11,810 bases of DNA, from IMG/VR virus record IMGVR_UViG_2778261375_000004, one strand, 5' to 3'. Shown here in pieces: positions 1-11,810 of this stretch (the stretch's first letter is position 1; every line of letters starts with the position of its first letter). The translations under genes and the position numbers were made by a program. This DNA is from a virus (taxonomy: Duplodnaviria > Heunggongvirae > Uroviricota > Caudoviricetes). A model generated the notes under the pieces. It had not been told where the DNA came from. It saw only the letters and a program-made list of their open reading frames with translations, and made no database searches.

Positions 1-528
<528 letters not shown>

Positions 529-704
529 CCAACCTTCACGGAAACCGACTCAGGTATCATTGATTTAAAAAGAATTGATAAAAGGGCCGTTATTATTGCG
601 ACAATTGCGAATAACGTTGCCCTGAACCATAGTTTTTTAAATGTCTGCTTCAGCATCCATTTCCAGCGTGAAATCATTCTGCATTCCCTCATATTGCAGC
701 CGGG

Positions 705-733
705 ATAAATAAATGCCGCCTCTGTGGCGGCAT
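705..733 (-). terminator. Rho-independent terminator of the BCCT transporter gene
   Basis: Perfect 8-bp stem ATGCCGCC (713-720) / GGCGGCAT (726-733) with 5-nt loop, beginning 8 bp after the transporter stop (741-743). On the minus strand it is followed by a U-rich tract (TTATTTAT, plus-strand 705-712). Confidence 0.6.
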
Positions 734-740
734 GTTGCTG

Positions 741-2744
741 TTAACGAACCAGATGCAGGAAGTGCAGGTGTTTTTCGTACTGGTCCAGTATGTCATTAAT
801 CAGCTGTTCCTGATTCCAGCCCATTACATCATAATTTTGGCCGCCCTCTTTGAGATAGACTTCAGCGCGATAATATCGATGTTGTTCACTCTGCTGCTCA
901 TCATTATCCAGCGCAGCGAGCGCGAAGGTCGGTGAGTTATACCCGCGAAGCCTCACTTCATATATATAATTCAGCTCGTTGCCCAAATCGACTTCAAGGC
1001 GAATACGATCCTCGGCGGCGTCACTGATGTGGCTTATCGTTCCCTGCTTGTTAAGTTCCTCCTGAACCAGCGTCATGGCGGGTTGGATAATGTCGTCCAT
1101 AAAACGTTTCACAAGAGAGCGCTTCGGCAAATACGCGATATTGCGTAACCTTCTCTGCCAGGGAATTGGGTTACGTGCAGCCGTAGGAGCAATAGTCGCC
1201 ATGCTAAGGCTTTCACGCTTGGTCAAATCCCGACGCAGGGCTTTTAACAGTCCGTATATGGATATTAATAAGATAACTGAGAAGGGCAATGCACTCGCTA
1301 TCGTTACGGTTTGCAACGCACTCAGCCCCCCTGCGATCAGCAGGGCAATAGCAACAACGCCCATGAGCGATGCCCAGAAAATTCGCTGCCAGACGGGCGT
1401 GTTTGCCACCCCACCTGATGCCAGAGTATCCACAACCATTGCCCCCGAATCAGCAGACGTTACAAAGAAGACGATGACCATCGCCATTGCAATGAATGAC
1501 AGCACGGAAGAGAACGGGAAATGCTCCAGGAAATTAAACAGGGCAAGCGCAACATCCTGCTGAACGGTATTGGCGAGGTCAGTGGCGCCCTGGTTCATGA
1601 TGAGATAGATGGCGCTGTTTCCAAACACCGTCATCCACATGAGCGTAAAGCCGGCGGGAACAAACAACACGCCAGTCACGAACTCACGAATTGTCCTGCC
1701 GCGGGAAACGCGTGCAATGAACATACCTACAAACGGCGACCATGAAAGCCACCATCCCCAGTATAATAATGTCCAGCCCCCCAGCCAGTTGCTCGACTTG
1801 GGTTCATACGCGTAAAGGTTGAACGTTTTACTCACCAGTTCCGACAGATAACCACCCGTATTTTCCACAAATGACTTCAGCAGAAGCACAGTGGGACCCA
1901 GGCACAAGACCAGCGCCAGGAGCAACACCGCCAGGCCCAGATTAAGCTCAGACAGGATGCGTATTCCCTTGTCCAGGCCGGACACCACCGAAATCGTCGC
2001 TAACCCCGTGATGACCACGATCAAAATGACCTGTACCGTTTCATTGATGGGCACGCCGAAAAGATGGTTCAAACCGGCATTCACCTGCAATACACCGTAA
2101 CCCAGTGATGTTGCAACGCCAAAGACAGTGCCTATCACGGCGAAGATATCAACCGCGTGGCCTATAGGCCCGTAAATGCGATCGCCGATAATGGGATAGA
2201 GCGCAGAACGCAGCGTTAAAGGCAGACCGTGACGGTAACTGAAAAAGGCCAGAATCAGCGCCACGATGGCATAAATTGCCCATGCGTGCAGACCCCAGTG
2301 GAAGAACGTCAGGCGCATGGCTTCCTTCGCTGCCGCAACGGTCTCTGGAGTGCCGACAGGTGGCGAAAGATAATGCATCACAGGTTCGGCAACGCCAAAG
2401 AACATCAGGCCGATCCCCATCCCTGCCGAAAAAAGCATCGCGAACCAGGAGTGGTAGCTGAAATCAGGCTGCGCATGGTCTGGGCCCAGCTTTATATCAC
2501 CGTAACGTGAGAGTCCAAGGAACGTGACGCTCAGTAAAATCAGGGCCACAGCAAGTATGTAGAACCAGCTGGCATTCGTGAAGATTTGTTGCTGAAGTAG
2601 TTTAAAATTTTTGTCGGCGACATCCGGGAATACGGCGGCAAAGGCGACAAGAAGGAAAATTAGCAAAGCAGATGTAAAGAATACCGCTTTGTTAATCTGG
2701 CTTGTAGACTTCTTTGGGGTTGTATCATTTTCACTCATAATCAT
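741..2744 (-). CDS. betU: BCCT-family (betaine/carnitine/choline) osmolyte transporter, BetU-like
   Basis: 667-aa polytopic membrane protein with the BCCT signature region WTLLYWGWWLSWSPFVGMFIARVSRGRTIREF and clear collinearity with my recollection of E. coli BetT. Length and context match the BetU paralogue recalled from uropathogenic E. coli; the symbol is tentative. Two adjacent ATG starts (2744, 2738). Confidence 0.85.
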   Translation of the reverse strand: MIMSENDTTPKKSTSQINKAVFFTSALLIFLLVAFAAVFPDVADKNFKLLQQQIFTNASWFYILAVALILLSVTFLGLSRYGDIKLGPDHAQPDFSYHSWFAMLFSAGMGIGLMFFGVAEPVMHYLSPPVGTPETVAAAKEAMRLTFFHWGLHAWAIYAIVALILAFFSYRHGLPLTLRSALYPIIGDRIYGPIGHAVDIFAVIGTVFGVATSLGYGVLQVNAGLNHLFGVPINETVQVILIVVITGLATISVVSGLDKGIRILSELNLGLAVLLLALVLCLGPTVLLLKSFVENTGGYLSELVSKTFNLYAYEPKSSNWLGGWTLLYWGWWLSWSPFVGMFIARVSRGRTIREFVTGVLFVPAGFTLMWMTVFGNSAIYLIMNQGATDLANTVQQDVALALFNFLEHFPFSSVLSFIAMAMVIVFFVTSADSGAMVVDTLASGGVANTPVWQRIFWASLMGVVAIALLIAGGLSALQTVTIASALPFSVILLISIYGLLKALRRDLTKRESLSMATIAPTAARNPIPWQRRLRNIAYLPKRSLVKRFMDDIIQPAMTLVQEELNKQGTISHISDAAEDRIRLEVDLGNELNYIYEVRLRGYNSPTFALAALDNDEQQSEQHRYYRAEVYLKEGGQNYDVMGWNQEQLINDILDQYEKHLHFLHLVR

Positions 2745-3078
2745 TTATTCCATTAATTAAATCCGCACTGGATAGAAGGTACTACCTCTCACAGAGTAGC
2801 AAAGTTCAACTGGCTATGCGGGGTTAATCGGAATGCATGGTGGAATGAGTGCCGATACAAATCATCCTATATTCTAAGGAGTTTTAAGTTACTCAGCCTG
2901 CCAATTACTGGGGCATTTAATTTGTATGATCTGTATCAAAGCTGGGATATAAGTTAAGTGAAGTATATTAGGCACGAATTACCAGCGTCTGCTCTTGGCA
3001 CAAAGCGGACAACCACGCTAGCTCTACCCTGTGCCACAAAATGTCAATTTGCATCTGAACTAATGCACTTTAATCTCG

Positions 3079-3501
3079 TCACTTCAATAAATACCGAACA
3101 TCCCCCTGATAAAACGACAATATGCGCTGCATAACTTCGCTCTTCCGGCACTCGCGACAGATTATGTTTAGGCGACTGTCGTAGCGACGTATTTCTCCGT
3201 CAGGTAATGACCAGATAAGGTCCGGATCAACCACAACCGGTTTCTTCAGCTTTGCCCTCGATAATTTTTTGCGGGCATTTTGCCAGTCTTTACGAGCCTG
3301 TTCAGACGGGAATAACCCGTAGCCAGAATTGTATACATCGCCACTGGCAACCAGCTCTCTGGCCAGAACGCTCATCAGATATCTTGTTGCCCCAGTTTTA
3401 GCTTCCAGTTGTCGTAACGTCTCGCGCCCACTCTGGCGTACGAGTTCAAGAACCTGCCCTTTAATTTTTTCCCGCTCTTCTTGTGTAAAAACTTTTGCCA
3501 C
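3079..3501 (-). CDS. hypothetical prophage protein (140 aa), possible winged-helix DNA-binding segment
   Basis: GTG start at 3499-3501 preceded by a perfect AGGAGG Shine-Dalgarno 4 nt upstream on the minus strand. It is the last gene of the minus-strand replication operon. No family recognised; residues ETLRQLEAKTGATRYLMSVLAREL look HTH-like. Confidence 0.55.
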   Translation of the reverse strand: MAKVFTQEEREKIKGQVLELVRQSGRETLRQLEAKTGATRYLMSVLARELVASGDVYNSGYGLFPSEQARKDWQNARKKLSRAKLKKPVVVDPDLIWSLPDGEIRRYDSRLNIICRECRKSEVMQRILSFYQGDVRYLLK

Positions 3502-3541
3502 AAGCCCTCCTGAAAATTACCTCATGACCAGAAATTAACAC

Positions 3542-4612
3542 TTACCCCCTGAAGCCCGGCGGAATTTCGTTATCCGGTTCAGAAATATGATTCACACAAC
3601 GCTGGTTGTTCGTGCCGCTTACCGGGAGCAACCAGGGGTTCTCAAAATTCCGGTCCGGTCCAAAAAACGTCGTCGCTCGCTGAACAAATTCCGTTCCCGT
3701 TTTCCCGGTAGCCGCCAAGTATCTTGCGTAACGCCTCACGCCATCCAGCATGGCCTCTGGTGGCACCCCCTCGCGTAATCTGGCCTTCCAGGCACTGAAA
3801 GCGGATTTCTTCGGGTTTGCCCCAGCACGCAACGGGTACTCCCGCCAGACCTGTTCGAACACATCCGGATAATCCACTCGTCCCACAGACTGCCCGGTGT
3901 TTTCCGGGACTACCCGATCGGCTTCCCGCTGAATGGCGGAATCGGCTTCAGGCTGCTGCAGTTGGTGTGATTGCTCCGCCCTTGCGGTCATCACCTGCTG
4001 CACAGCGCCCGAATCGGCTTTCAGCGCATACGCTGAATCGGCTTCCGGTGTCGTGCCTGCTGGCTGACCAAGATTGACGGTCTGAACATCCCCTGCCTGG
4101 TTCGTGGCGTTTTTTACGCCATGGACCATAGTGTTTTGATCTTCTTGATCTGTATCTTTATCTGTATCTTTATCTGTCGTGACTCGTCGTGACATGTGCG
4201 TGACATTTCGTGACGCGCCGTGACAATCGCCATTTTGTTCCCGCTTTCTTTCCCTCTCTCGCTGCGCCCTCTTGCGCTCTGCAGGAGATTTTGCGGTTTG
4301 CGAAATATTGCCGTTGTCCTCTTTAAGCACCTGGCGTTTTTCCCATCCAGTGATTAAATCACCATCAAGTACCCGCCCCTGCATCGTCTGCAAAATTGAA
4401 TCAATTACCTCTTCTGTCACGTCGAGCGCACTTGCCAAATCTTCTGTCGTGACATCAATGTGACCTCGCGTGACATTTCGTGACGCGCTCACCAGGAGGT
4501 GGATATACACTGCCATCACTGTTGCAATTGGCTGCCCTGACACCCTGGCAATTGTTCGCCACTTAGGGTCATTTGGCATGTCATGCCATAATCTGAGCCA
4601 GGCGTTAGCCAT
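3542..4612 (-). CDS. Prophage replication initiator with DnaT-like C-terminal domain (YdaU-type)
   Basis: The C-terminus ...FGPDRNFENPWLLPVSGTNNQRCVNHISEPDNEIPPGFRG matches the C-terminal end of E. coli primosomal protein DnaT (...SEPDSQIPPGFRG) as recalled. Start taken as ATG 4610-4612 with AAGAGG 5 nt upstream; the track start GTG 4618 lies inside that RBS. Gene position corresponds to ydaU of Rac. Confidence 0.8.
   Translation of the reverse strand: MANAWLRLWHDMPNDPKWRTIARVSGQPIATVMAVYIHLLVSASRNVTRGHIDVTTEDLASALDVTEEVIDSILQTMQGRVLDGDLITGWEKRQVLKEDNGNISQTAKSPAERKRAQRERERKREQNGDCHGASRNVTHMSRRVTTDKDTDKDTDQEDQNTMVHGVKNATNQAGDVQTVNLGQPAGTTPEADSAYALKADSGAVQQVMTARAEQSHQLQQPEADSAIQREADRVVPENTGQSVGRVDYPDVFEQVWREYPLRAGANPKKSAFSAWKARLREGVPPEAMLDGVRRYARYLAATGKTGTEFVQRATTFFGPDRNFENPWLLPVSGTNNQRCVNHISEPDNEIPPGFRG
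4148..4224. repeat. Iteron-like array I: 12-bp AT-rich tandem repeat followed by five helically phased CGTGAC hexamers
   Basis: ATCTGTATCTTT at 4148-4159 and 4160-4171, partial third copy to 4183. CGTGAC at 4178, 4188, 4199, 4209, 4219 (spacing 10, 11, 10, 10 bp). Lies inside the replication-initiator CDS. Confidence 0.6.
4415..4487. repeat. Iteron-like array II: phased CGTGAC/TGTGAC hexamers plus one inverted copy
   Basis: GTCACG (inverted) at 4415-4420; CGTGAC at 4447, 4468, 4478 and TGTGAC at 4458 (spacing 11, 10, 10 bp). The 21-mer GCGTGACATTTCGTGACGCGC is identical at 4198-4218 and 4467-4487. Confidence 0.55.
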
Positions 4613-4683
4613 ACTCACCTCTTTTGATACCGAATCTTTTTACTCACAAATTGCCGGAAGTGATCCGGTATGAATATTGCGAG

Positions 4684-5109
4684 TCAATGCACAGCCACAA
4701 TATTTCCTGCAGGGCCACCACGATTCATCTGGTTGAAACCAGCGATCGCCACTGCGACAAAATCATCAGCGTCTCTCACCAGTCGTTCCCGCGTCTCCAC
4801 TAGTTCCCGAAAATAGGCTGAGCTATGGCTGCGCATTCGGGCCACCAGCAGAGGTGGCATTGCTTTTTCGATAGCTGGTAACAACGCCTGAATTTTTTCA
4901 ACTGCATCAGGGGTGTCTTTCTCTACCCAGCGGAAAATTTTCTGGGTATTGCGAGCCAGGGCTTCCGGATGGCTGTCGTCATACAGTTCTGGGAACGTCA
5001 TACCCAGTTCAAAATAAGCCCTGGTTATTTCAGCTGCCGGAACTTTTTCACCGTCCGGATGCGCCCAGGCATTCATCGCCATGCGGATGTGTTCATGCTT
5101 GATTTTCAT
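4684..5109 (-). CDS. YdaT-like protein (CII-analogue / formerly annotated toxin family)
   Basis: 141 aa, start ATG 5107-5109 with AGGAG 8 nt upstream. N-terminus MKIKHEHI... and position (between the Cro-like gene and the replication initiator) correspond to ydaT of Rac-type prophages as recalled. Confidence 0.6.
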   Translation of the reverse strand: MKIKHEHIRMAMNAWAHPDGEKVPAAEITRAYFELGMTFPELYDDSHPEALARNTQKIFRWVEKDTPDAVEKIQALLPAIEKAMPPLLVARMRSHSSAYFRELVETRERLVRDADDFVAVAIAGFNQMNRGGPAGNIVAVH

Positions 5110-5374
5110 GAATCAAGCTCCTAGAAAGTGGTTGTGTTAACATTTTGGTATCTTCCAGCTCGGGCCAAATATTCATCCAATCAAAAGGCCTTAGTTGCTG
5201 ACGTGTAACTTCACCATTACTGGCTCGCTCAATAAGGACACATAACGATGCCCCTAACACTTGACCTTTACTCAATGCCTTTCTTAGATAACCGATGCTG
5301 GTACCACACTCGCATGCAAACATACGCTGTTCATCTGACGAAAGAGAATTGAGAAATATTCTTAATTCTTCCAT
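5093..5374 (-). CDS. Cro-like HTH regulator (YdaS family)
   Basis: 93 aa, ATG 5372-5374 with AAGGAG 5 nt upstream. Transcribed divergently from the repressor. The segment ...ERASNGEVTRQQLRPFDW resembles the YdaS/Cro-like family as recalled. Overlaps the next gene by 17 bp. Confidence 0.65.
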   Translation of the reverse strand: MEELRIFLNSLSSDEQRMFACECGTSIGYLRKALSKGQVLGASLCVLIERASNGEVTRQQLRPFDWMNIWPELEDTKMLTQPLSRSLIHENQA

Positions 5375-5399
5375 AGCTACTCCTTAGTAAACACAGCAA

Positions 5400-5468
5400 A
5401 GAATACCCACAGGTAAACAAAAGTCAATACCCACAGGTTGTTTACCTTGCAGTAATCGCATCTATTAT
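5400..5468. promoter_or_regulatory. Immunity switch: divergent promoters with operator pair O1/O2 (TACC-N4-GGTA)
   Basis: O1 TACCCACAGGTA (5404-5415) and O2 TACCCACAGGTT (5428-5439), each within the direct repeat AATACCCACAGGT. Minus-strand promoter for the Cro-like gene: -35 TTGACT (plus-strand 5422-5427), 16-bp spacer, -10 TATTCT (5400-5405). Plus-strand promoter for the repressor: -35 TTTACC (5441-5446), 16-bp spacer, -10 TATTAT (5463-5468). Confidence 0.55.
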
Positions 5469-5474
5469 TTACCT

Positions 5475-5894
5475 ATGGACAAATATGAATTTAGACGACA
5501 GCAACTCATCAAAATTCGTGATGAGAAATGCGATGGTAAAGCGGTTAACGTGGCCAGAAAGATCGGGCGCGAGCCTTCTTATGTATCAAGAATGTTGTAC
5601 CCAGAGGGGAAAAAGGGAAAAAAACGGATCGCTGATGATATGGTGGAGATTATCGAAGAGTCCTTTGGGTTACCCCGGGGATGGATGGATGGTATCGTTT
5701 CATCATCAACGAACACAGCCTCCAGTTATGAAACAAGGGTTCTAACGCCACGACAACGTATTTTTTTAGATCTCTTAGACGAACTGCCAGAAAGTGAAGC
5801 GGATAACTTATTAAAAACTCTTGAAGAGAAAAAACAGTATTACAATATGATCTACGAAGAAATCCGTAAAAAGAAAGCACAAAACGCATCATAG
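5475..5894 (+). CDS. Prophage CI-type repressor (HTH, no peptidase S24 domain; DicA/RacR-like architecture)
   Basis: 139 aa; N-terminal HTH (GKAVNVARKIGREPSYVSRML); C-terminal region resembles the dimerisation region of DicA as recalled. Divergent from the Cro-like gene. No SD upstream of the ATG, consistent with a leaderless mRNA. Confidence 0.75.
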   Translation: MDKYEFRRQQLIKIRDEKCDGKAVNVARKIGREPSYVSRMLYPEGKKGKKRIADDMVEIIEESFGLPRGWMDGIVSSSTNTASSYETRVLTPRQRIFLDLLDELPESEADNLLKTLEEKKQYYNMIYEEIRKKKAQNAS

Positions 5895-5934
5895 CTCACC
5901 AAACAACTAGTCACCAGTTAAGACACCGCAAAAA

Positions 5935-5975
5935 GTTACCCATGGGTATTTACTTTTTAAATACCTATGGGTAAC
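5935..5975 (+). promoter_or_regulatory. Second operator pair O3/O4 (OL-like) at the start of the rightward early operon
   Basis: O3 TACCCATGGGTA (5937-5948, perfect 12-bp palindrome) and O4 TACCTATGGGTA (5962-5973), 25 bp centre to centre. Together they form a 41-bp near-palindrome GTTACCCATGGGTATTTA-N5-TAAATACCTATGGGTAAC. Same TACC-N4-GGTA consensus as O1/O2. Confidence 0.55.
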
Positions 5976-6159
5976 CTTCTTTTCATACCAACCCACCCCG
6001 CCCCACAGAATGCAGGGCAATACTTCGAGTTACCAGGCAGTGGTCAGGGGTTAAGTAGCCAGCCCGAGGCGTAAGAACATGACGGCAGGGTTCAACTTTA
6101 ATAACTATGCAGCAGGTTTTTGTTCCGCTACCCCGGCGTTAAGGGGAAATGAGGTCAGC

Positions 6160-6315
6160 ATGGATACTATCGATCTTGGCAACAGCGAATCTCTGGTATG
6201 TGGCGTGTTCCCCAACCAAGACGGTACGTTCACCGCGATGACGTATACCAAAAGCAAAACGTTTAAAACCGAAAATGGTGCCCGTCGCTGGCTGGAAAGA
6301 AACTCAGGTGAGTGA
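6160..6315 (+). CDS. ydfA: small prophage protein, YdfA-like (51 aa)
   Basis: ATG 6160 with GAGG 5 nt upstream; 51 aa (MDTIDLGNSESLVCGVFPNQDGTF...), first gene after the OL-like operators. Size and position match ydfA of the Qin dicB operon as recalled. The ORF-track start at 6079 gives a 27-aa N-terminal extension with a poorer RBS. Confidence 0.55.
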   Translation: MDTIDLGNSESLVCGVFPNQDGTFTAMTYTKSKTFKTENGARRWLERNSGE

Positions 6316-6316
6316 T

Positions 6317-6445
6317 ATGGATTTCGACACAATCATGGAAAAGGCTTACGAAGAATACTTCGAAGGTCTTGCCGAAGGCGAAGAAGCTCTCAGCTTCAAC
6401 GAATTTAAACAGGCGCTTTCCAGTTCGGCAAAATCTAACGGCTGA
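6317..6445 (+). CDS. ydfB: small acidic prophage protein, YdfB-like (42 aa); not in the ORF track (below size cutoff)
   Basis: ATG 6317 one base after the upstream stop (TGA-T-ATG), with AGGTGA 6 nt upstream. Translation MDFDTIMEKAYEEYFEGLAEGEEALSFNEFKQALSSSAKSNG, stop TGA 6443-6445. Size and position match ydfB. Confidence 0.55.
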   Translation: MDFDTIMEKAYEEYFEGLAEGEEALSFNEFKQALSSSAKSNG

Positions 6446-6474
6446 TAAGCGAAACAGCACCGCGAGGAATCAGT

Positions 6475-6690
6475 ATGCAGAAACGAGAACCCGTCATCAT
6501 CGCGCCAGACTATACCGATGATGAACTTTATGAGTGGATGCACCAGAAAATTAATGCAGCGCAGGATCTGAAATGGGCCAATGAAGCTAGGGCTAAGCAG
6601 GCTGAAAATCTGTCCGCTCTGGAGCAGGATATCACCAATCTGGAAAAAGCAGCAGCATTAAGCATTGCCAGAATGATTACAGGTTGGTAA
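6475..6690 (+). CDS. ydfC: small prophage protein, YdfC-like (71 aa)
   Basis: ATG 6475 with GAGGA 6 nt upstream; protein-like composition (MQKREPVIIAPDYTDDELYEWMHQKINAAQDLKW...). Position and size match ydfC. Confidence 0.6.
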   Translation: MQKREPVIIAPDYTDDELYEWMHQKINAAQDLKWANEARAKQAENLSALEQDITNLEKAAALSIARMITGW

Positions 6691-7002
6691 TAAAGGAGTT
6701 CTCCACGGGTGAGGTGGAGTGCGTGTGCCGGACACGGGTGAGCATCCGGCACTGACAGTTTACTGAAAGGATATTTCCCTGAAAAGTCAGACCATAACGC
6801 GAAAGCGCACGGCGAGGTAGCTGGTTCATAGATAGCCTGTCGTTAAATTTTCGTCGACCGTGCGCTTCCGGTTGTGGCAATCCGCGAAATGGCGCGGCGG
6901 TAAGTATGGCGGGGTTATTCCTTCCCCCGTTGAGGACACCGGGTTGTCAGGTTGACCATACGCTTAAGTGACAACCCCGCTGCAACGCCCTCTGTTATCA
7001 AT

Positions 7003-7060
7003 TTTCTGGTGACGTTTGGCGGTATCAGTTTTACTCCGTGACTGCTCTGCCGCCCTTTTT
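7003..7060 (+). ncRNA. dicF: DicF small regulatory RNA (cell-division/ftsZ-targeting sRNA of lambdoid prophages)
   Basis: TTTCTGGTGACGTTTGGCGGTATCAGTTTTACTCCGTGACTGCTCTGCCGCCCTTTTT matches the DicF sequence as I recall it. It ends in an intrinsic terminator (interrupted GGCGG...CCGCC stem plus T5 at 7056-7060) and sits between ydfC-like and dicB as in Qin. The 5' end is approximate (RNase-processed in vivo). Confidence 0.7.
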
Positions 7061-7229
7061 AAAGTGAATTTTGTGATGTGGTGAATGCGGCTGAGCGCAC
7101 GCGGAACAGTTAAAACCAAAAACAGTGTTATGGGTGGATTCTCTGTATCCGGCGTTAATTGTTAACTGGTTAACGTCACCTGGAGGCACCAGGCACCGCA
7201 TCACAAAATTCATTGTTGAGGACGCGATA

Positions 7230-7418
7230 ATGAAAACGTTATTACCAAACGTTAATACGTCTGAAGGTTGTTTTGAAATTGGTGTCACTATCAGTAACCC
7301 AGTATTTACTGAAGATGCCATTAACAAGAGAAAACAAGAACGGGAGCTATTAAATAAAATATGCATTGTTTCAATGCTGGCTCGTTTACGTCTGATGCCA
7401 AAAAGATGTGCACAATGA
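7230..7418 (+). CDS. dicB: Cell-division inhibitor DicB (62 aa)
   Basis: ATG 7230 with GAGGA 7 nt upstream. Translation MKTLLPNVNTSEGCFEIGVTISNPVFTEDAINKRKQERELLNKICIVSMLARLRLMPKRCAQ matches my recollection of E. coli DicB (62 aa). The ORF-track start at 7125 is an upstream extension without an RBS. Confidence 0.75.
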   Translation: MKTLLPNVNTSEGCFEIGVTISNPVFTEDAINKRKQERELLNKICIVSMLARLRLMPKRCAQ

Positions 7419-7606
7419 ATTCAGCATTTGCGCTTGTTCTGACAGTTTTTCTTGTTTCCGGAGAGCCAGTTGATATTGCAGTCAGTGTTCACAGGACAAT
7501 GCAGGAGTGTATGACTGCAGCAACCGAACAGAAAATTCCCGGTAACTGTTACCCGGTCGATAAAGTTATTCACCAGGATAATATCGAAATCCCGGCAGGT
7601 CTTTAA
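7415..7606 (+). CDS. ydfD: small membrane protein, YdfD-like (63 aa)
   Basis: ATG 7415 overlaps the dicB stop (ATGA, translational coupling). N-terminal hydrophobic helix MNSAFALVLTVFLVSG...; 63 aa, matching the size and position of ydfD (Qin lysis-associated protein). The track start at 7361 is less likely. Confidence 0.6.
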   Translation: MNSAFALVLTVFLVSGEPVDIAVSVHRTMQECMTAATEQKIPGNCYPVDKVIHQDNIEIPAGL

Positions 7607-7699
7607 AACAGTTCCGTAATAAATATCCGGTTTCATTCTTATATGCCAGCAATGGCAGGGATTTATTCATCCTTAAATCTGTCATGAGGTTAAAATAAA

Positions 7700-10171
7700 A
7701 TGAGTAAAGTCTTTATTTGCGCCGCTATTCCTGACGAACTGGCAACAAGGGAAGAAGGCGCTGTGGCTGTAGCCACAGCCATTGAAGCTGGCGACGAACG
7801 CCGTGCTCGAGCAAAATTTCACTGGCAATTCCTGGAACATTATCCGGCTGCTCAGGACTGCGCTTATAAATTTATTGTCTGCGAGGATAAACCTGGCATA
7901 CCCCGCCCAGCCCTCGATTCATGGGATGCTGAATATATGCAGGAAAACCGCTGGGATGAGGATTCTGCTTCTTTTGTTCCGGTTGAGACTGAATCCGATC
8001 CGATGAACGTCACTTTTGACAAGCTGGCCCCTGAAGTACAGAACGCTGTCATGGTTAAGTTCGACACATGTGAAAACATCACCGTTGATATGATTATTAG
8101 CGCGCAGGAATTGTTGCAGGAAGACATGGCAACATTCGACGGACATATCGTTGAAGCGTTGATGAAAATGCCAGAAGTTAACGCCATGTATCCGGAGCTT
8201 AAGTTGCACGCCATTGGGTGGGTTAAGCATAAATGTATTCCTAGTGCTAAATGGCCCGAAATTCAGGCAGAGATGCGCATCTGGAAAAAACGTCGCGAAG
8301 GTGAACGCAAGGAAACCGGAAAATACACGTCTGTTGTTGATCTCGCCCGCGCCAGAACCAATCAACAGTACACTGAAAATTCAACAGGAAAAATCTGCCC
8401 GGTCATTGCTGCCATTCATCGCGAATACAAGCAGACATGGAAAACACTGGATGACGAACTGGCCTACGCTCTCTGGCCTGGTGATGTGGGTGCCGGAAAC
8501 ATTGACGGCAGCATCCATCGCTGGGCAAAAAAAGAAGTTATCGACAACGACCGCGAAGACTGGAAGCGTATCTCGGCATCAATGCGCAAACAGCCTGATG
8601 CCCTTCGCTACGACCGCCAAACTATTTTTGGCCTTGTCCGTGAGCGTCCGATCGACATTCACAAAGATCCCGTAGCACTGAACAAATATATCTGCGAATA
8701 CCTGACGACAAAGGGCGCGTTTGAGAATGAAGAAACAGACCTGGGCACTGTTGATGTTCTCCAGTCATCAGAAACACAAACTGATGCAGTGGAAACTGAG
8801 GTATCTGATATCCCAAAAAATGAAACCGCGCCGGAAGCTGAACCATCTGTAGAGCGTGAGGGGCCGTTCTATTTCCTCTTCGCAGATAAGGACGGAGAAA
8901 AATACGGTCGCGCAAACAAACTTTCTGGTCTGGATAAGGCACTGGCTGCTGGCGCCACTGAAATCACAAAAGAAGAATATTTTGCCCGAAAAAATGGCAC
9001 ATACACGGGCTTACCGCAAAATGTAGATACCGCTGAAGATTCAGAACAACCAGAGCCGATAAAAGTTACCGCTGACGAAGTAAACAAAATTATGCAGGCA
9101 GCCAATATCAGCCAGCCTGACGCCGATAAGTTGCTTGCTGCATCACGTGGTGAATTTGTTGAAGGGATTAGTGACCCGAATGATCCGAAATGGGTTAAGG
9201 GGATCCAGACCCGCGATTCTGTGAACCAGAACCAGCATGAATCGGAACGGAACTACCAAAAAGCGGAACAAAACAGTCCAAATGCGTTACAAAACGAGCC
9301 AGAAACGAAACAGCCTGAACCAGTGGCGCAACAGGAAGTGGAAAAAGCCTGCACCGCTTGCGGTCAGACCGGCGGCGGCAACTGCCCTGATTGTGGCGCG
9401 GTGATGGGCGACGCAACATACCAAGAAACATTCGATGAAGAGTATCAGGTTGAAGTTCAGGAAGATGATCCGGAGGAAATGGAAGGCGCTGAACATCCAC
9501 ACAAGGAGAACACTGGCGGCAATCAGCATCACAATAGCGATAATGAAACTGGCGAGACGGCAGATCACCCAATTAAGGTGAACGGTCATCACGAAATCAC
9601 ATCCACCAGCAGGACGTGTGACCATCTAATGATCGACCTTGAAACCATGGGAAAAAATCCTGATGCCCCGATCATCTCAATAGGTGCAATATTTTTCGAT
9701 CCGCAAACCGGAGATATGGGACCGGAATTTAGTAAGACTATCGATCTGGAAACTGCTGGCGGAGTCATTGATCGGGACACCATTAAATGGTGGCTTAAGC
9801 AATCACGCGAAGCGCAATCTGCCATTATGACCGATGAAATCCCGTTAGATGATGCACTGTTACAATTGCGGGAATTTATCGACGAAAACTCCGGTGAATT
9901 TTTTGTTCATGTCTGGGGAAATGGAGCCAACTTCGACAACACGATTTTGCGCCGTTCATACGAACGGCAGGGGATCCCCTGCCCGTGGCGTTACTACAAC
10001 GATCGCGATGTACGCACAATCGTTGAGCTGGGGAAAGCCATAGACTTCGATGCCAGAACGGCTATTCCATTCGAAGGTGAGCGCCATAATGCACTTGATG
10101 ACGCCCGTTACCAGGCAAAATACGTTTCAGTTATCTGGCAAAAACTGATCCCGAGTCAGGCTGATTCTTAA
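7700..10171 (+). CDS. RecE/ExoVIII-like prophage protein with C4 zinc ribbon and C-terminal DEDDh (DnaQ-like) 3'-5' exonuclease domain
   Basis: 823 aa, ATG 7700 with GAGGT 9 nt upstream. DEDDh motifs read from the translation: Exo I M-I-D-L-E (D646, E648; nt 9629-9643), Exo II HVWGNGANFDN (D746), Exo III H-N-A-L-D-D (H796, D801). Cys4 motif CTAC...CPDC (~nt 9350-9397). Segment KLLAASRGEFVEGISDPNDPKWVKGIQTRD resembles RecE as recalled. Corresponds to an intact version of the IS-disrupted ydfE of Qin. Confidence 0.8.
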   Translation: MSKVFICAAIPDELATREEGAVAVATAIEAGDERRARAKFHWQFLEHYPAAQDCAYKFIVCEDKPGIPRPALDSWDAEYMQENRWDEDSASFVPVETESDPMNVTFDKLAPEVQNAVMVKFDTCENITVDMIISAQELLQEDMATFDGHIVEALMKMPEVNAMYPELKLHAIGWVKHKCIPSAKWPEIQAEMRIWKKRREGERKETGKYTSVVDLARARTNQQYTENSTGKICPVIAAIHREYKQTWKTLDDELAYALWPGDVGAGNIDGSIHRWAKKEVIDNDREDWKRISASMRKQPDALRYDRQTIFGLVRERPIDIHKDPVALNKYICEYLTTKGAFENEETDLGTVDVLQSSETQTDAVETEVSDIPKNETAPEAEPSVEREGPFYFLFADKDGEKYGRANKLSGLDKALAAGATEITKEEYFARKNGTYTGLPQNVDTAEDSEQPEPIKVTADEVNKIMQAANISQPDADKLLAASRGEFVEGISDPNDPKWVKGIQTRDSVNQNQHESERNYQKAEQNSPNALQNEPETKQPEPVAQQEVEKACTACGQTGGGNCPDCGAVMGDATYQETFDEEYQVEVQEDDPEEMEGAEHPHKENTGGNQHHNSDNETGETADHPIKVNGHHEITSTSRTCDHLMIDLETMGKNPDAPIISIGAIFFDPQTGDMGPEFSKTIDLETAGGVIDRDTIKWWLKQSREAQSAIMTDEIPLDDALLQLREFIDENSGEFFVHVWGNGANFDNTILRRSYERQGIPCPWRYYNDRDVRTIVELGKAIDFDARTAIPFEGERHNALDDARYQAKYVSVIWQKLIPSQADS

Positions 10172-10182
10172 TGTTCAACTGT

Positions 10183-10214
10183 CGCCGGTTGTGACTGGTA
10201 TTCTGCAACCGGCG
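10183..10214 (+). other. Stable hairpin between the exonuclease gene and the excisionase-position gene
   Basis: 9-bp perfect stem CGCCGGTTG (10183-10191) / CAACCGGCG (10206-10214) with a 14-nt loop; not followed by a T-run, so it is not a canonical intrinsic terminator. Confidence 0.35.
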
Positions 10215-10243
10215 CTCGTCTAATGTAAGAGATAAAGAAATCG

Positions 10244-10495
10244 ATGAGCGAAGTAATCATGATTGTCTCTCCCGGCAAATGGGTATCCGAAGAGCAGTTA
10301 ATTGCGCTGAAAGGAATAAAAAAAGGTACGTTAAAAAAGGCCCGGGAAAAATCGTTTATGGAAGGAAGGGAATATAAGCATGTCGCTCATGACGGTATGC
10401 CATGGGATAACAGCCCATGCTTTTACAACCTGGAAGAAATTGATCGCTGGATTGAGCGCCAGGCATCAGCAAGACCAAGACGTCATCTTACTTGA
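10244..10495 (+). CDS. small protein in excisionase position (putative Xis / DNA-binding recombination directionality factor)
   Basis: 83 aa, directly upstream of and co-oriented with the integrase (20-35 bp gap), basic and small. Assignment is by position and size only; no motif recognised with certainty. Confidence 0.45.
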   Translation: MSEVIMIVSPGKWVSEEQLIALKGIKKGTLKKAREKSFMEGREYKHVAHDGMPWDNSPCFYNLEEIDRWIERQASARPRRHLT

Positions 10496-10529
10496 CTAAA
10501 AGCCACACTAACTAATGAGAGAAGTTGAA

Positions 10530-11810
10530 ATGAAATATCCGACAGGCGTGGAAAACCATGGAGGGAAATTACGTATCTGGTTTGTTTATAAAGGCGTAAG
10601 AGTCAGGGAAAACCTGGGGGTTCCTGACACAGCAAAAAACAGGCGCGTTGCAGGCGAGCTACGCGCCTCTGTTTGTTACGCAATAAAAACTGGTGTTTTC
10701 GACTATGCAAAACAGTTTCCCTCCTCACGCAATCTGGAAAAATTTGGTGAGACCCGACAAGATTTAACCATAAAAGAACTGGCTGAAAAATTTCTGGCAC
10801 TGAAAGAAACTGAAGTCGCAAAAACATCACTCAACACATACCGTGCCGTCATCAAAAATATCCTGAGCATAATCGGTGAAAAAAATCTTGCCTCATCGAT
10901 TAATAAAGAAAAATTACTGGAGGTTCGTAAAGAGCTACTGACTGGATACCAGATCCCCAAAAGTAACTATATTGTTACACAACCAGGAAGATCGGCTGTA
11001 ACTGTAAATAATTACATGACAAATCTTAACGCCGTGTTCCAGTTTGGTGTTGATAACGGTTACCTGGCAGATAACCCGTTTAAGGGGATCTCGCCATTAA
11101 AGGAATCAAGAACCATTCCGGATCCTCTTTCGCGGGAGGAATTCATCCGTCTTATCGATGCGTGCAGAAATCAGCAAGCCAAAAATTTATGGTGTGTTTC
11201 TGTTTATACTGGCGTTCGCCCTGGTGAGCTGTGTGCACTTGGATGGGAGGACATAGATCTGAAAAATGGAACAATGATGATCAGGAGAAATTTAGCAAAA
11301 GACCGTTTCACGGTACCAAAAACACAGGCGGGAACCAATCGGGTCATTCATCTTATTAAGCCAGCAATCGACGCTCTCCGGAGTCAGATGACATTAACGA
11401 GACTGAGCAAAGAGCATATCATTGATGTTCACCTCAGAGAGTATGGCAGAACAGAAAAACATAAATGCACCTTTGTTTTTCAACCTGAAGTGTCAGCGAG
11501 AGTAAAAAATTATGGTGACCATTTTACCGTTGACTCAATAAGGCAGATGTGGGACGCAGCGATAAAACGTGCCGGACTCCGCCATCGAAAATCATATCAG
11601 TCGAGACATACTTATGCCTGCTGGTCGCTGACAGCTGGTGCTAACCCGGCATTTATAGCAAACCAGATGGGCCATGCAGATGCGCAAATGGTATTTCAGG
11701 TATACGGAAAATGGATGTCTGAAAACAATAATGCACAGGTAGCTTTGTTAAATACACAGTTAAGCGAGTTTGCCCCAACCATGCCCCATAACGAAGCAAT
11801 GAAAAATTAA
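10530..11810 (+). CDS. int: Tyrosine site-specific integrase (phage integrase family)
   Basis: Catalytic signature in the C-terminal domain: box I Arg (TGVRPGEL), box II ...SRHTYACWSLTAGANPAFIANQMGHADAQMVFQVYGKWM with the H-x-x-R and nucleophile Tyr pattern. Start taken as ATG 10530 (purine-rich GAGAAG 5-6 nt upstream); the ORF-track start 10515 is an alternative. Stop TAA at 11808-11810, the window end. Confidence 0.9.
   Translation: MKYPTGVENHGGKLRIWFVYKGVRVRENLGVPDTAKNRRVAGELRASVCYAIKTGVFDYAKQFPSSRNLEKFGETRQDLTIKELAEKFLALKETEVAKTSLNTYRAVIKNILSIIGEKNLASSINKEKLLEVRKELLTGYQIPKSNYIVTQPGRSAVTVNNYMTNLNAVFQFGVDNGYLADNPFKGISPLKESRTIPDPLSREEFIRLIDACRNQQAKNLWCVSVYTGVRPGELCALGWEDIDLKNGTMMIRRNLAKDRFTVPKTQAGTNRVIHLIKPAIDALRSQMTLTRLSKEHIIDVHLREYGRTEKHKCTFVFQPEVSARVKNYGDHFTVDSIRQMWDAAIKRAGLRHRKSYQSRHTYACWSLTAGANPAFIANQMGHADAQMVFQVYGKWMSENNNAQVALLNTQLSEFAPTMPHNEAMKN

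Follow-up and report, generated by a model that had tools for sequence, protein, structure and literature searches.

The locus and the question it raises

This locus raises the question of whether a short segment of viral DNA, running from 7003 to 7606 on the plus strand, encodes a module that controls the division of its host, and of how such a module would be regulated and expressed in its present setting. A preliminary description of the segment, made without database searches, had proposed that it carries the DicF sRNA, the DicB protein and a translationally coupled YdfD-like protein, and that it forms a potent, repressor-silenced toxic module. The dicBF operon of E. coli has been studied since the 1980s. 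We analyzed the segment in the context of the whole stretch of DNA that contains it, which has 11,810 nucleotides and is here called the window.

We conclude, with a probability of roughly 0.93, that the segment comprises dicF, dicB and ydfD of the dicBF operon in a Qin-site lambdoid prophage of E. coli, and that it acts by the mechanism proposed for it below. The cassette is already known, is nearly identical to the laboratory-strain copy and is very common in E. coli. Features of the locus are listed in Table 1.

Table 1 Coordinates of the features in and around the cassette, with the evidence for each
Feature	Coordinates	Strand	Basis
Divergent OR-like control region	5375..5474	.	Flanked by a cro-like gene (leftward from 5374) and the gene for the repressor; palindromes
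139-aa prophage repressor, not DicA	5475..5894	+	PHROG; alignment with DicA; NCBIfam
Candidate twin OL-like operators, GTTACCCATGGGTATT and AATACCTATGGGTAAC	5935..5975	+	25 bp apart; palindrome count
ydfA	6160..6315	+	94-98% identical to K-12 (range for ydfA, ydfB and ydfC); Pfam DUF1391; RefSeq on identical DNA
ydfB	6317..6445	+	94-98% identical to K-12 (same range); RefSeq on identical DNA
ydfC	6475..6690	+	94-98% identical to K-12 (same range); RefSeq on identical DNA
Untranslated precursor region 5′ of DicF (ydfC-dicF)	6691..7002	+	314/321 identical to K-12; fold z = -2.7
DicF sRNA and terminator tail	7003..7060	+	sRNA body 7003-7055; stem-loop 7018-7054; U-tract (TTTTT) 7056-7060
Structured dicB leader	7056..7229	+	Folding versus shuffles; 173/174 identical to K-12
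dicB, 62 aa, G59R relative to K-12	7230..7418	+	Pfam; NCBIfam; comparison with K-12
ydfD, 63 aa, V6A relative to K-12	7415..7606	+	Pfam; PHROG; comparison with K-12
Weak terminator-like hairpin and T-rich tail 3′ of ydfD	7644..7667	+	Terminator scan
Intact 823-aa exonuclease, full-length form of the K-12 pseudogene ydfE	7700..10171	+	Pfam; phrog_2082

Operon structure, genomic setting and distribution

The gene order is that of the Qin-type operon, ydfA-ydfB-ydfC-dicF-dicB-ydfD, including the overlap of the last two genes; ydfA, ydfB and ydfC are the promoter-proximal genes. The next gene of the operon after ydfD encodes an exonuclease. Its residues 642-813 match the Pfam Rv2179c-like 3′-5′ exoribonuclease domain with 225 bits, and phrog_2082, which it also matches, is an exonuclease family. 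The hairpin between these two genes is likely to be the 3′ end of the ydfABC-dicF-dicB-ydfD transcript, and arithmetic from published data (a 1,608-nt transcript with the DicF 3′ end at +1003; PMC10448788) places that end at about 7660. The location of the locus, between a repressor gene and genes for the exonuclease, an excisionase and an integrase, fits the early-left operon that was originally proposed.

Positions 526-11810 of the window are 100% identical to many E. coli chromosomes, in which the prophage adjoins rspB/rspA, i.e., the site of Qin in K-12. Homology with K-12 itself begins at 6122, which is 38 nt upstream of the ydfA ATG and downstream of the candidate promoter discussed below, and it stops at 8466. 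The cassette has a match in 4,649-4,739 of 5,426 complete E. coli genomes; at least 80% of the cassette is found in approximately 3,780 of the 5,426, and the median number of places in a genome is two. Sequenced phages, e.g., Tritos and mEp460, carry it as well. A scan of genome contigs with DicB, intended to reach beyond Escherichia, returned only six loci, all from Escherichia or Shigella except for one on a Veillonella MAG contig, which looks like contamination. For comparisons among copies, we gathered 92 related loci from genomes and viral contigs. The 80 loci from viral contigs are all 98-100% identical, so these were used to count alleles rather than to sample diversity.

DicF and its precursor

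The Rfam model for DicF (RF00039) aligns end to end (model positions 1-52 of 52) with positions 7004-7055 of the plus strand. Its score of 76.7 bits is well above the gathering score of 48 (E 6.7e-16), and DicF is the only Rfam family to reach its own threshold in the window. The annotated K-12 dicF (53 nt) maps to 7003-7055 and is identical at 53 of 53 positions. Because the K-12 gene ends at 7055 and a run of five T nucleotides follows, the interval 7003-7060 corresponds to the sRNA plus its U-tail. The stem-loop at the 3′ end of DicF has a predicted folding energy of -15.9 kcal/mol, and DicF is thus present with its own terminator, as had been described. A generic terminator scan of the window did not pick up this terminator because its stem is bulged and its loop has 9 nt.

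DicF binds the ftsZ mRNA near its Shine-Dalgarno sequence (PMC6832061, PMC5069750), and metabolic targets are also known (PMC5069750). Antisense pairing with ftsZ would be expected here on the basis of identity with the K-12 DicF and the published work (PMC5069750). The best duplex that RNAduplex predicts between the two RNAs covers positions -29 to +25 of ftsZ; as 65 of 500 shuffled DicF sequences formed equally good duplexes, this pairing does not discriminate DicF from shuffles and was set aside as evidence.

DicF is not a free-standing gene. In K-12, it is excised from a polycistronic RNA, with RNase III yielding a 190-nt form, which depends on this enzyme, and RNase E yielding the 53-nt form (PMC10448788). 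The 3′ end of the 53-nt form results from Rho-independent termination, and a 72-nt form is the RNase III product of read-through transcripts (PMC5069750). In the untranslated region 5′ of DicF, we predict a duplex of about 24 bp between 6792-6817 and 6852-6877. The position at which RNase III cuts to produce the 190-nt form (at about 6865/6866, giving a 5′ end at 6866) falls within this duplex. Both published RNase III positions, for the 190-nt and the 72-nt forms, sit in long predicted duplexes here.

DicB and YdfD

The dicB product matches Pfam PF05358 along its entire length (positions 1-62 of 62) with 131.6 bits (cut-off 27), and NCBIfam NF049927 with 127.2 bits (cut-off 100). It is identical to the K-12 protein at 61 of 62 residues, and G59R is the sole change. 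The dicB reading frame is open upstream as far as a GTG at 7125, which is consistent with the internal in-phase start that, going by its title, a paper by Cam et al. in 1988 is said to have reported.

The ydfD product matches profile positions 1-57 of 57 of Pfam PF07358 (DUF1482) with 92 bits (cut-off 25) as well as phrog_1092 (E 1.1e-36), and 62 of its 63 residues are identical to those in K-12, the difference being V6A. RefSeq labels on identical DNA are ‘cell division inhibition protein DicB’ and ‘lysis protein YdfD’. The ydfD ATG (7415-7417) and the dicB TGA (7416-7418) overlap as ATGA, which can be read directly from the sequence and occurs in all 92 related loci. Significant matches to DicF, DicB and YdfD were therefore found for 7003-7060 and for both protein products, and all three identifications in the preliminary description proved correct by Rfam, Pfam, NCBIfam and comparison with K-12. 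PDB sequence searches with DicB, YdfD and the 139-aa repressor gave nothing usable.

DicB carries MinC to the septum via ZipA (PMC6832061, PMC5069750), and it blocks phage entry that depends on ManYZ (PMC6832061). Overexpressed YdfD lyses dividing cells, and this lysis is prevented by DicB or SulA; YdfD's N-terminal domain binds IspG, a cytoplasmic partner that is its proposed target (PMC8835842). The statements that DicF and DicB impair FtsZ function by independent routes (pairing with ftsZ mRNA versus MinC-ZipA), that YdfD is associated with lysis and that the module alters the sensitivity of its host to phages are thus in agreement with the literature. For the DicB in the window, MinC binding and ZipA-dependent inhibition of division would be expected from the 61/62 identity, but are not guaranteed given G59R. 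Division-dependent lysis and inhibition of IspG by the YdfD here would likewise carry over from the K-12 protein (PMC8835842).

The N-terminal segment of YdfD, SAFALVLTVFLV, had been described as a transmembrane helix. It is hydrophobic, with a Kyte-Doolittle maximum of 1.87 over 19 residues and of 2.95 over 11 residues, the latter at residue 4. However, the binding partner IspG is cytoplasmic (PMC8835842), and the label “transmembrane helix” exceeds the evidence; we retain only the hydrophobic segment.

A structured leader upstream of dicB

The 174-nt spacer between dicF and dicB has a predicted minimum free energy of -69 kcal/mol, versus -46 +/- 4 kcal/mol in shuffled sequences (z = -5.6). 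Its length is conserved, since dicF and dicB are 174 nt apart in nearly all of the 92 loci. The predicted structure is closed by a stem of about 28 bp, in which 7056-7083 is paired with 7194-7222. The DicF U-tail is the first part of the 5′ strand of this stem, and the dicB Shine-Dalgarno sequence, GAGGA (7218-7222), is the last part of its 3′ strand. The 3′ end of the 72-nt RNase III product of DicF, at approximately 7074, is inside the closing stem, and arithmetic from the transcript lengths in PMC10448788 places another end near 7198, on the opposite strand of the stem. From this model we infer that cleavage of the leader by RNase III would release DicF and would also unmask the ribosome-binding site of dicB.

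A related leader is present in another prophage module. In Rac-type prophages, matches to the spacer alone, about 81% identical, lie directly upstream of kilR. The long stem shows no differences on either strand when dicB-type copies are compared with kilR-type copies, and divergence begins exactly at the Shine-Dalgarno sequence. With both strands invariant across the two types, we obtained no covariation in the leader stem; the only differences between copies are one-sided changes compatible with wobble pairing. The kilR leader is preceded by a DicF-like RNA with a different body, which scores 37-39 bits against the DicF threshold of 48, and the K-12 annotation has the sRNA KilS at this position. 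An RNase III-cleaved leader common to both genes may be a gate of general use, such that prophage division inhibitors are untranslated until the upstream sRNA is cut off.

Repressor, candidate operators and candidate promoter

In K-12, DicA represses dicBp, the promoter of ydfABC-dicF-dicB-ydfD(-ydfE) (PMC10448788). We did not find the immunity control by DicA or DicA-DicC of the Qin-type dicBF operon in this locus, which has a different repressor and different putative operators instead. The 139-aa repressor matches phrog_5736, ‘transcriptional regulator’ (E 4.4e-70), and the annotation of phage Tritos names it ‘CI repressor’. Its similarity to DicA is confined to 46 C-terminal residues (residues 89-134 versus DicA 84-129; 33% identity, E 1e-7), and it scores 23.9 bits with the NCBIfam DicA model, below the cut-off of 101. 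Leftward genes in the immunity region encode a 93-aa YdaS/Cro-like protein and a YdaT-like protein.

The palindrome TACC-N4-GGTA occurs at three exact sites in the 11.8-kb window, compared with 0.10 expected, and all three are at OR-like or OL-like positions. A wider form of the pattern has 9 strand-hits versus 0.82 expected. Two of the exact sites are at 5935-5975, shortly after the repressor gene and before ydfA. The OR-like region has one exact site (5402-5417) and two degenerate ones (5426-5441 and 5469-5484). We read these palindromes as putative OR-like and OL-like operators. Among the loci that were fetched, the 25-bp operator pair is present in 6 of 6 with a 139-aa-type repressor in view and in 0 of 20 DicA loci. 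In one locus (L013), the pair stays beside the repressor even though the genes between the pair and ydfC differ.

A candidate operon promoter overlaps the OL-like operators, with a -35 element TTTACT (5949-5954) and a -10 element TAACCT (5972-5977) at a spacing of 17. This promoter was read by eye, by analogy with TTGACC-17-TAATCT in K-12, which has the same geometry. Its hexamers are weak, and it was not listed by a generic promoter and terminator scan, the output of which was not above shuffled expectation. The twin operators also form a hairpin with 21-nt arms 3′ of the repressor gene, which the scanner flagged as terminator-like. A match to mir-2041 at 5937-5973 (27.9 bits, threshold 70) is this same hairpin, and we rejected it as a chance match.

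The operator sites support the description of the cassette as repressor-silenced. Such silencing has been shown only for DicA (PMC10448788), however, and the repressor and operators differ here, so in this window the cassette is best described as probably silenced by the 139-aa protein.

Proposed mechanism

The operon ydfA-ydfB-ydfC-dicF-dicB-ydfD-exonuclease would be transcribed from the PL-like promoter at about 5949-5977. In the lysogen, this promoter would be shut off by the 139-aa repressor bound to the two palindromes at 5935-5975. We take the events that should follow derepression from K-12, on the strength of near-identity. Some derepressed transcripts would end at the DicF terminator, and others would continue past it. 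RNase III and RNase E would cut DicF from its precursor and, together with Hfq, DicF would pair with the ftsZ mRNA and other targets, lowering FtsZ synthesis. Transcripts that read through would form the long leader duplex, which has a second RNase III site and would bury the dicB Shine-Dalgarno sequence. Cleavage of the leader would release the 72-nt DicF and free dicB for translation. DicB would then bind MinC and take it to the septum via ZipA, whereupon Z rings would dissolve, and it would also block the ManYZ-dependent entry of phage DNA. Ribosomes terminating on dicB would translate ydfD through the ATGA overlap, and YdfD would inhibit IspG and lyse dividing cells, an effect counteracted by DicB. 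Given that this allele lost the ydfD Shine-Dalgarno sequence, YdfD output would rely on coupling alone and would probably be below that of K-12.

Alternative explanations

The loss of this Shine-Dalgarno sequence follows from G7404A, the only difference from K-12 in dicB, which changes GGA to AGA and is responsible for G59R. An AGGA 8 nt upstream of the ATG of ydfD has the GGA of codon 59 as its core. The predicted pairing of the ydfD Shine-Dalgarno region with the anti-Shine-Dalgarno sequence is -0.9 kcal/mol here. Five other alleles have values of -4.1 to -6.6 kcal/mol, even though the DicB of one of them is only 38/62 identical. All five of these DicB alleles keep glycine 59. With the Shine-Dalgarno sequence lost, ydfD output would depend on re-initiation at ATGA alone and is probably lower than in K-12. 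The functions attributed to the families were accurate. In this strain, “potent” may be too strong a word for the YdfD arm. G7404A may even be a dual-purpose attenuating mutation that alters the only conserved glycine in the DicB C-terminus and also removes the Shine-Dalgarno sequence of the overlapping ydfD. Taken further, the cassette could be present but functionally attenuated in this lineage, as a partly disarmed relic and not a potent toxic module. Of the 92 loci, 86 have GGA as codon 59, and AGA is confined to the window and relatives identical to it; the exact 53-nt allele is rare (62 of 5,426 E. coli genomes, in a census where BLAST word-size limits made only exact matches detectable). 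In addition, ydfD is disrupted in other lineages, being frameshifted in Shigella flexneri (L006), and products are shortened in 5 of the 92 loci. However, every reading frame in the window is intact, DicF and the leader are unchanged, re-initiation at the overlap is possible without a Shine-Dalgarno sequence and the C-terminus is the most variable part of DicB, so R59 may be tolerated. We consider a disarmed relic rather unlikely, and we regard as similarly doubtful the joint proposal of a dual-purpose attenuating G7404A together with a separate gate formed by the shared leader.

The other alternatives concern the role of an active cassette and the extent of YdfD. The main selected role could be a benefit to the host, in which DicB provides superinfection exclusion through ManYZ and DicF tunes metabolism or stress responses, with the division block and lysis being side effects of overexpression. 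Despite its toxicity, approximately 70-87% of complete E. coli genomes keep the cassette, frequently with several copies. DicB confers a resistance to lambda of about 100-fold (PMC6832061), DicF accumulates in stationary phase and the K-12 operon promoter becomes active in a fraction of the cells (PMC10448788). The metabolic targets of DicF (PMC5069750) also point in this direction. On the other hand, the cassette is found in sequenced phages too, so it may serve the lytic program of the phage, and PADLOC has no model that matches any cassette protein, DicB and YdfD included. The sequence does not distinguish a host benefit from the toxic module, and the two are compatible. We lean against host benefit as the main role, while taking it as a serious possibility. 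Far less credible is a longer, secreted YdfD that starts at an in-frame ATG at 7361 or 7406. With such a start, YdfD would gain a lysine-rich n-region, and its hydrophobic segment would become a signal peptide whose cleavage site is VSG/E. The frame is indeed open from 7361 (an 81-aa ORF), and KK-MCTMNSAFALVLTVFLVSG-EP looks like a signal peptide by eye. But the in-frame stretch upstream of ydfD in the most diverged copy (L014) has 8 codons and no ATG, whereas the ATGA start is kept in 92 of 92 loci. The Pfam and PHROG profiles both start at the annotated start, and the published protein has 63 aa and a cytoplasmic partner (PMC8835842). A longer YdfD is already largely refuted by these observations, and we rejected both upstream starts. 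The reading that we prefer remains that of the dicF-dicB-ydfD cassette with a 63-aa YdfD, working as proposed above.

Significance

The locus carries little weight as a discovery. Its value is as a confirmation, in that the preliminary identification was accurate to the base. Three points go beyond this, each a small and modest hypothesis: the repressor wiring, the shared leader and the allele without a ydfD Shine-Dalgarno sequence. The toxic cassette is wired to a different set of repressor and operators, which shows that it moves between immunity types as a unit. Useful annotations are that the RNase III sites are located on clear predicted duplexes, one of which would hide the ribosome-binding site of dicB, that kilR has the leader too and that a rare allele removes the Shine-Dalgarno sequence of ydfD.

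Comparison with known systems

The kil gene of the lambda PL operon is a small, repressor-controlled early-left product that causes a ZipA-dependent block of FtsZ ring assembly (PMC3961180). DicB would share all of these properties. However, the two have no sequence relationship, and kil lacks both an associated sRNA and a coupled lysis gene.

STnc100 (RF02076) is a prophage-associated RNA first reported in Salmonella. The dicF-dicB spacer, at 7053-7262, aligns to the full 206-position Rfam model, including the outer long-range stem and two conserved inner hairpins. Its score of 38.8 bits does not reach the gathering score of 47, which places it outside the family under the Rfam criterion, and the spacers of related loci score similarly (35.5-40.4 bits). 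Here the element is an mRNA leader within an operon and not evidently a separate sRNA.

The Rac-type KilS-kilR module occupies the same position in an early-left operon, and also consists of a terminator-bearing sRNA, a structured leader and a small division inhibitor directed at FtsZ. The kilR leader folds in a similar way, but the kilR Shine-Dalgarno sequence is just outside the stem whereas that of dicB is inside. The KilR inhibitor is unrelated to DicB.

The closest relative is the Qin dicBF operon of K-12 (ydfABC-dicF-dicB-ydfD-ydfE), which has the same gene order and the same site next to rspB. DicF (53/53), the spacer (173/174), DicB (61/62) and YdfD (62/63) are identical or nearly so, and the ATGA overlap is the same. 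The differences are that the repressor, putative operators and candidate promoter here belong to a different immunity type, with homology starting at 6122, and that G59R in DicB removes the ydfD Shine-Dalgarno sequence, alongside V6A in YdfD. In K-12, ydfE and intQ are pseudogenes and cut by IS2, whereas the exonuclease, excisionase and integrase genes in the window are intact.

Structured leader of dicB

The dicB leader (7056-7229) is structured (z = −5.6), and a copy of it with approximately 81% identity occurs directly 5′ of kilR in Rac-type prophages (positions 2007-2186 of loci L010 and L012). The stem strands are invariant between the dicB and kilR versions, and the mosaic joint of the dicB-type and kilR-type modules is located at the Shine-Dalgarno sequence. 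In the K-12 annotation, an sRNA, KilS, is placed upstream of kilR. An alignment of this leader with Rfam STnc100 covers the whole model, but its score is below the threshold.

The core of the leader is also present on the 90-kb plasmid pEc-050-T20-ESBL_3 (locus L011, 2001-2121; 84% identity), where it matches positions 31-147 of the STnc100 model with 40.4 bits. It is placed amid tRNA genes and upstream of an SPFH-domain gene, with a Tad2 anti-Thoeris gene nearby, and the plasmid is probably a phage-plasmid. Given this plasmid copy, the leader element moves without DicF, dicB or kilR.

The dicB frame is open in the 5′ direction to a GTG at 7125 (a 97-aa ORF), and the extension (7125-7229) crosses the structured leader. 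This arrangement is consistent with the internal in-phase start from which DicB is reportedly translated.

Variation in dicB-ydfD

A G-to-A change at 7404 of the window causes DicB G59R and deprives the overlapping gene ydfD of its Shine-Dalgarno, AGGA; the pairing is −0.9 kcal/mol here versus −4.1 to −6.6 in other alleles. The A allele is rare (62 of 5,426 E. coli genomes). Five of the 92 loci, one of them from Shigella flexneri (L006), have a frameshifted or shortened ydfD (18-59 aa) alongside an intact dicB, which suggests that this lysis gene has been lost recurrently. An Escherichia-type dicB-ydfD cassette (94% protein identity) also turns up on a contig assigned to a Veillonella parvula MAG (L007), where it most likely reflects contamination of the bin.

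Candidate operators and neighboring genes

Three exact TACC-N4-GGTA palindromes occur in the window versus 0.10 expected. Judging from sequence, they mark candidate operators of the 139-aa repressor that is distinct from DicA. The OL-like pair accompanies this repressor in all six loci that have the repressor in view and is missing in all 20 DicA loci. It doubles as a hairpin with 21-nt arms that looks like a terminator of the repressor gene.

Features of the window
Feature	Position	Description
BCCT-family (BetT-like) transporter	741-2744	directly adjoins prophage replication genes
Operator-like palindromes	5402-5484 (OR-like), 5935-5975 (OL-like)	TACC-N4-GGTA sites
Exonuclease, 823 aa, intact	7700-10171	C-terminal Rv2179c-like 3′-5′ exoribonuclease (DEDDh) domain, residues 642-813
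Excisionase, intact	10244-10495	
IntQ-type integrase, intact	10515-11810	

In strain ECCRA-119 (L003, 4963-11213), the BCCT transporter belongs to a five-gene cargo block together with an MFS transporter, a gamma-glutamylcyclotransferase, a LysR regulator and a DUF2254 protein. The block has the replication module on one side, and hokD and the Q antiterminator on the other.

The prophage region is bordered by the 3′ part of istB of an IS21-family (IS100-like) element (1-525). This is a strain-specific IS insertion, since the match to most E. coli chromosomes that are otherwise identical begins at 526 and the istB piece is missing from them. The exonuclease gene is kept whole, whereas K-12 ydfE is its IS2-truncated remnant.
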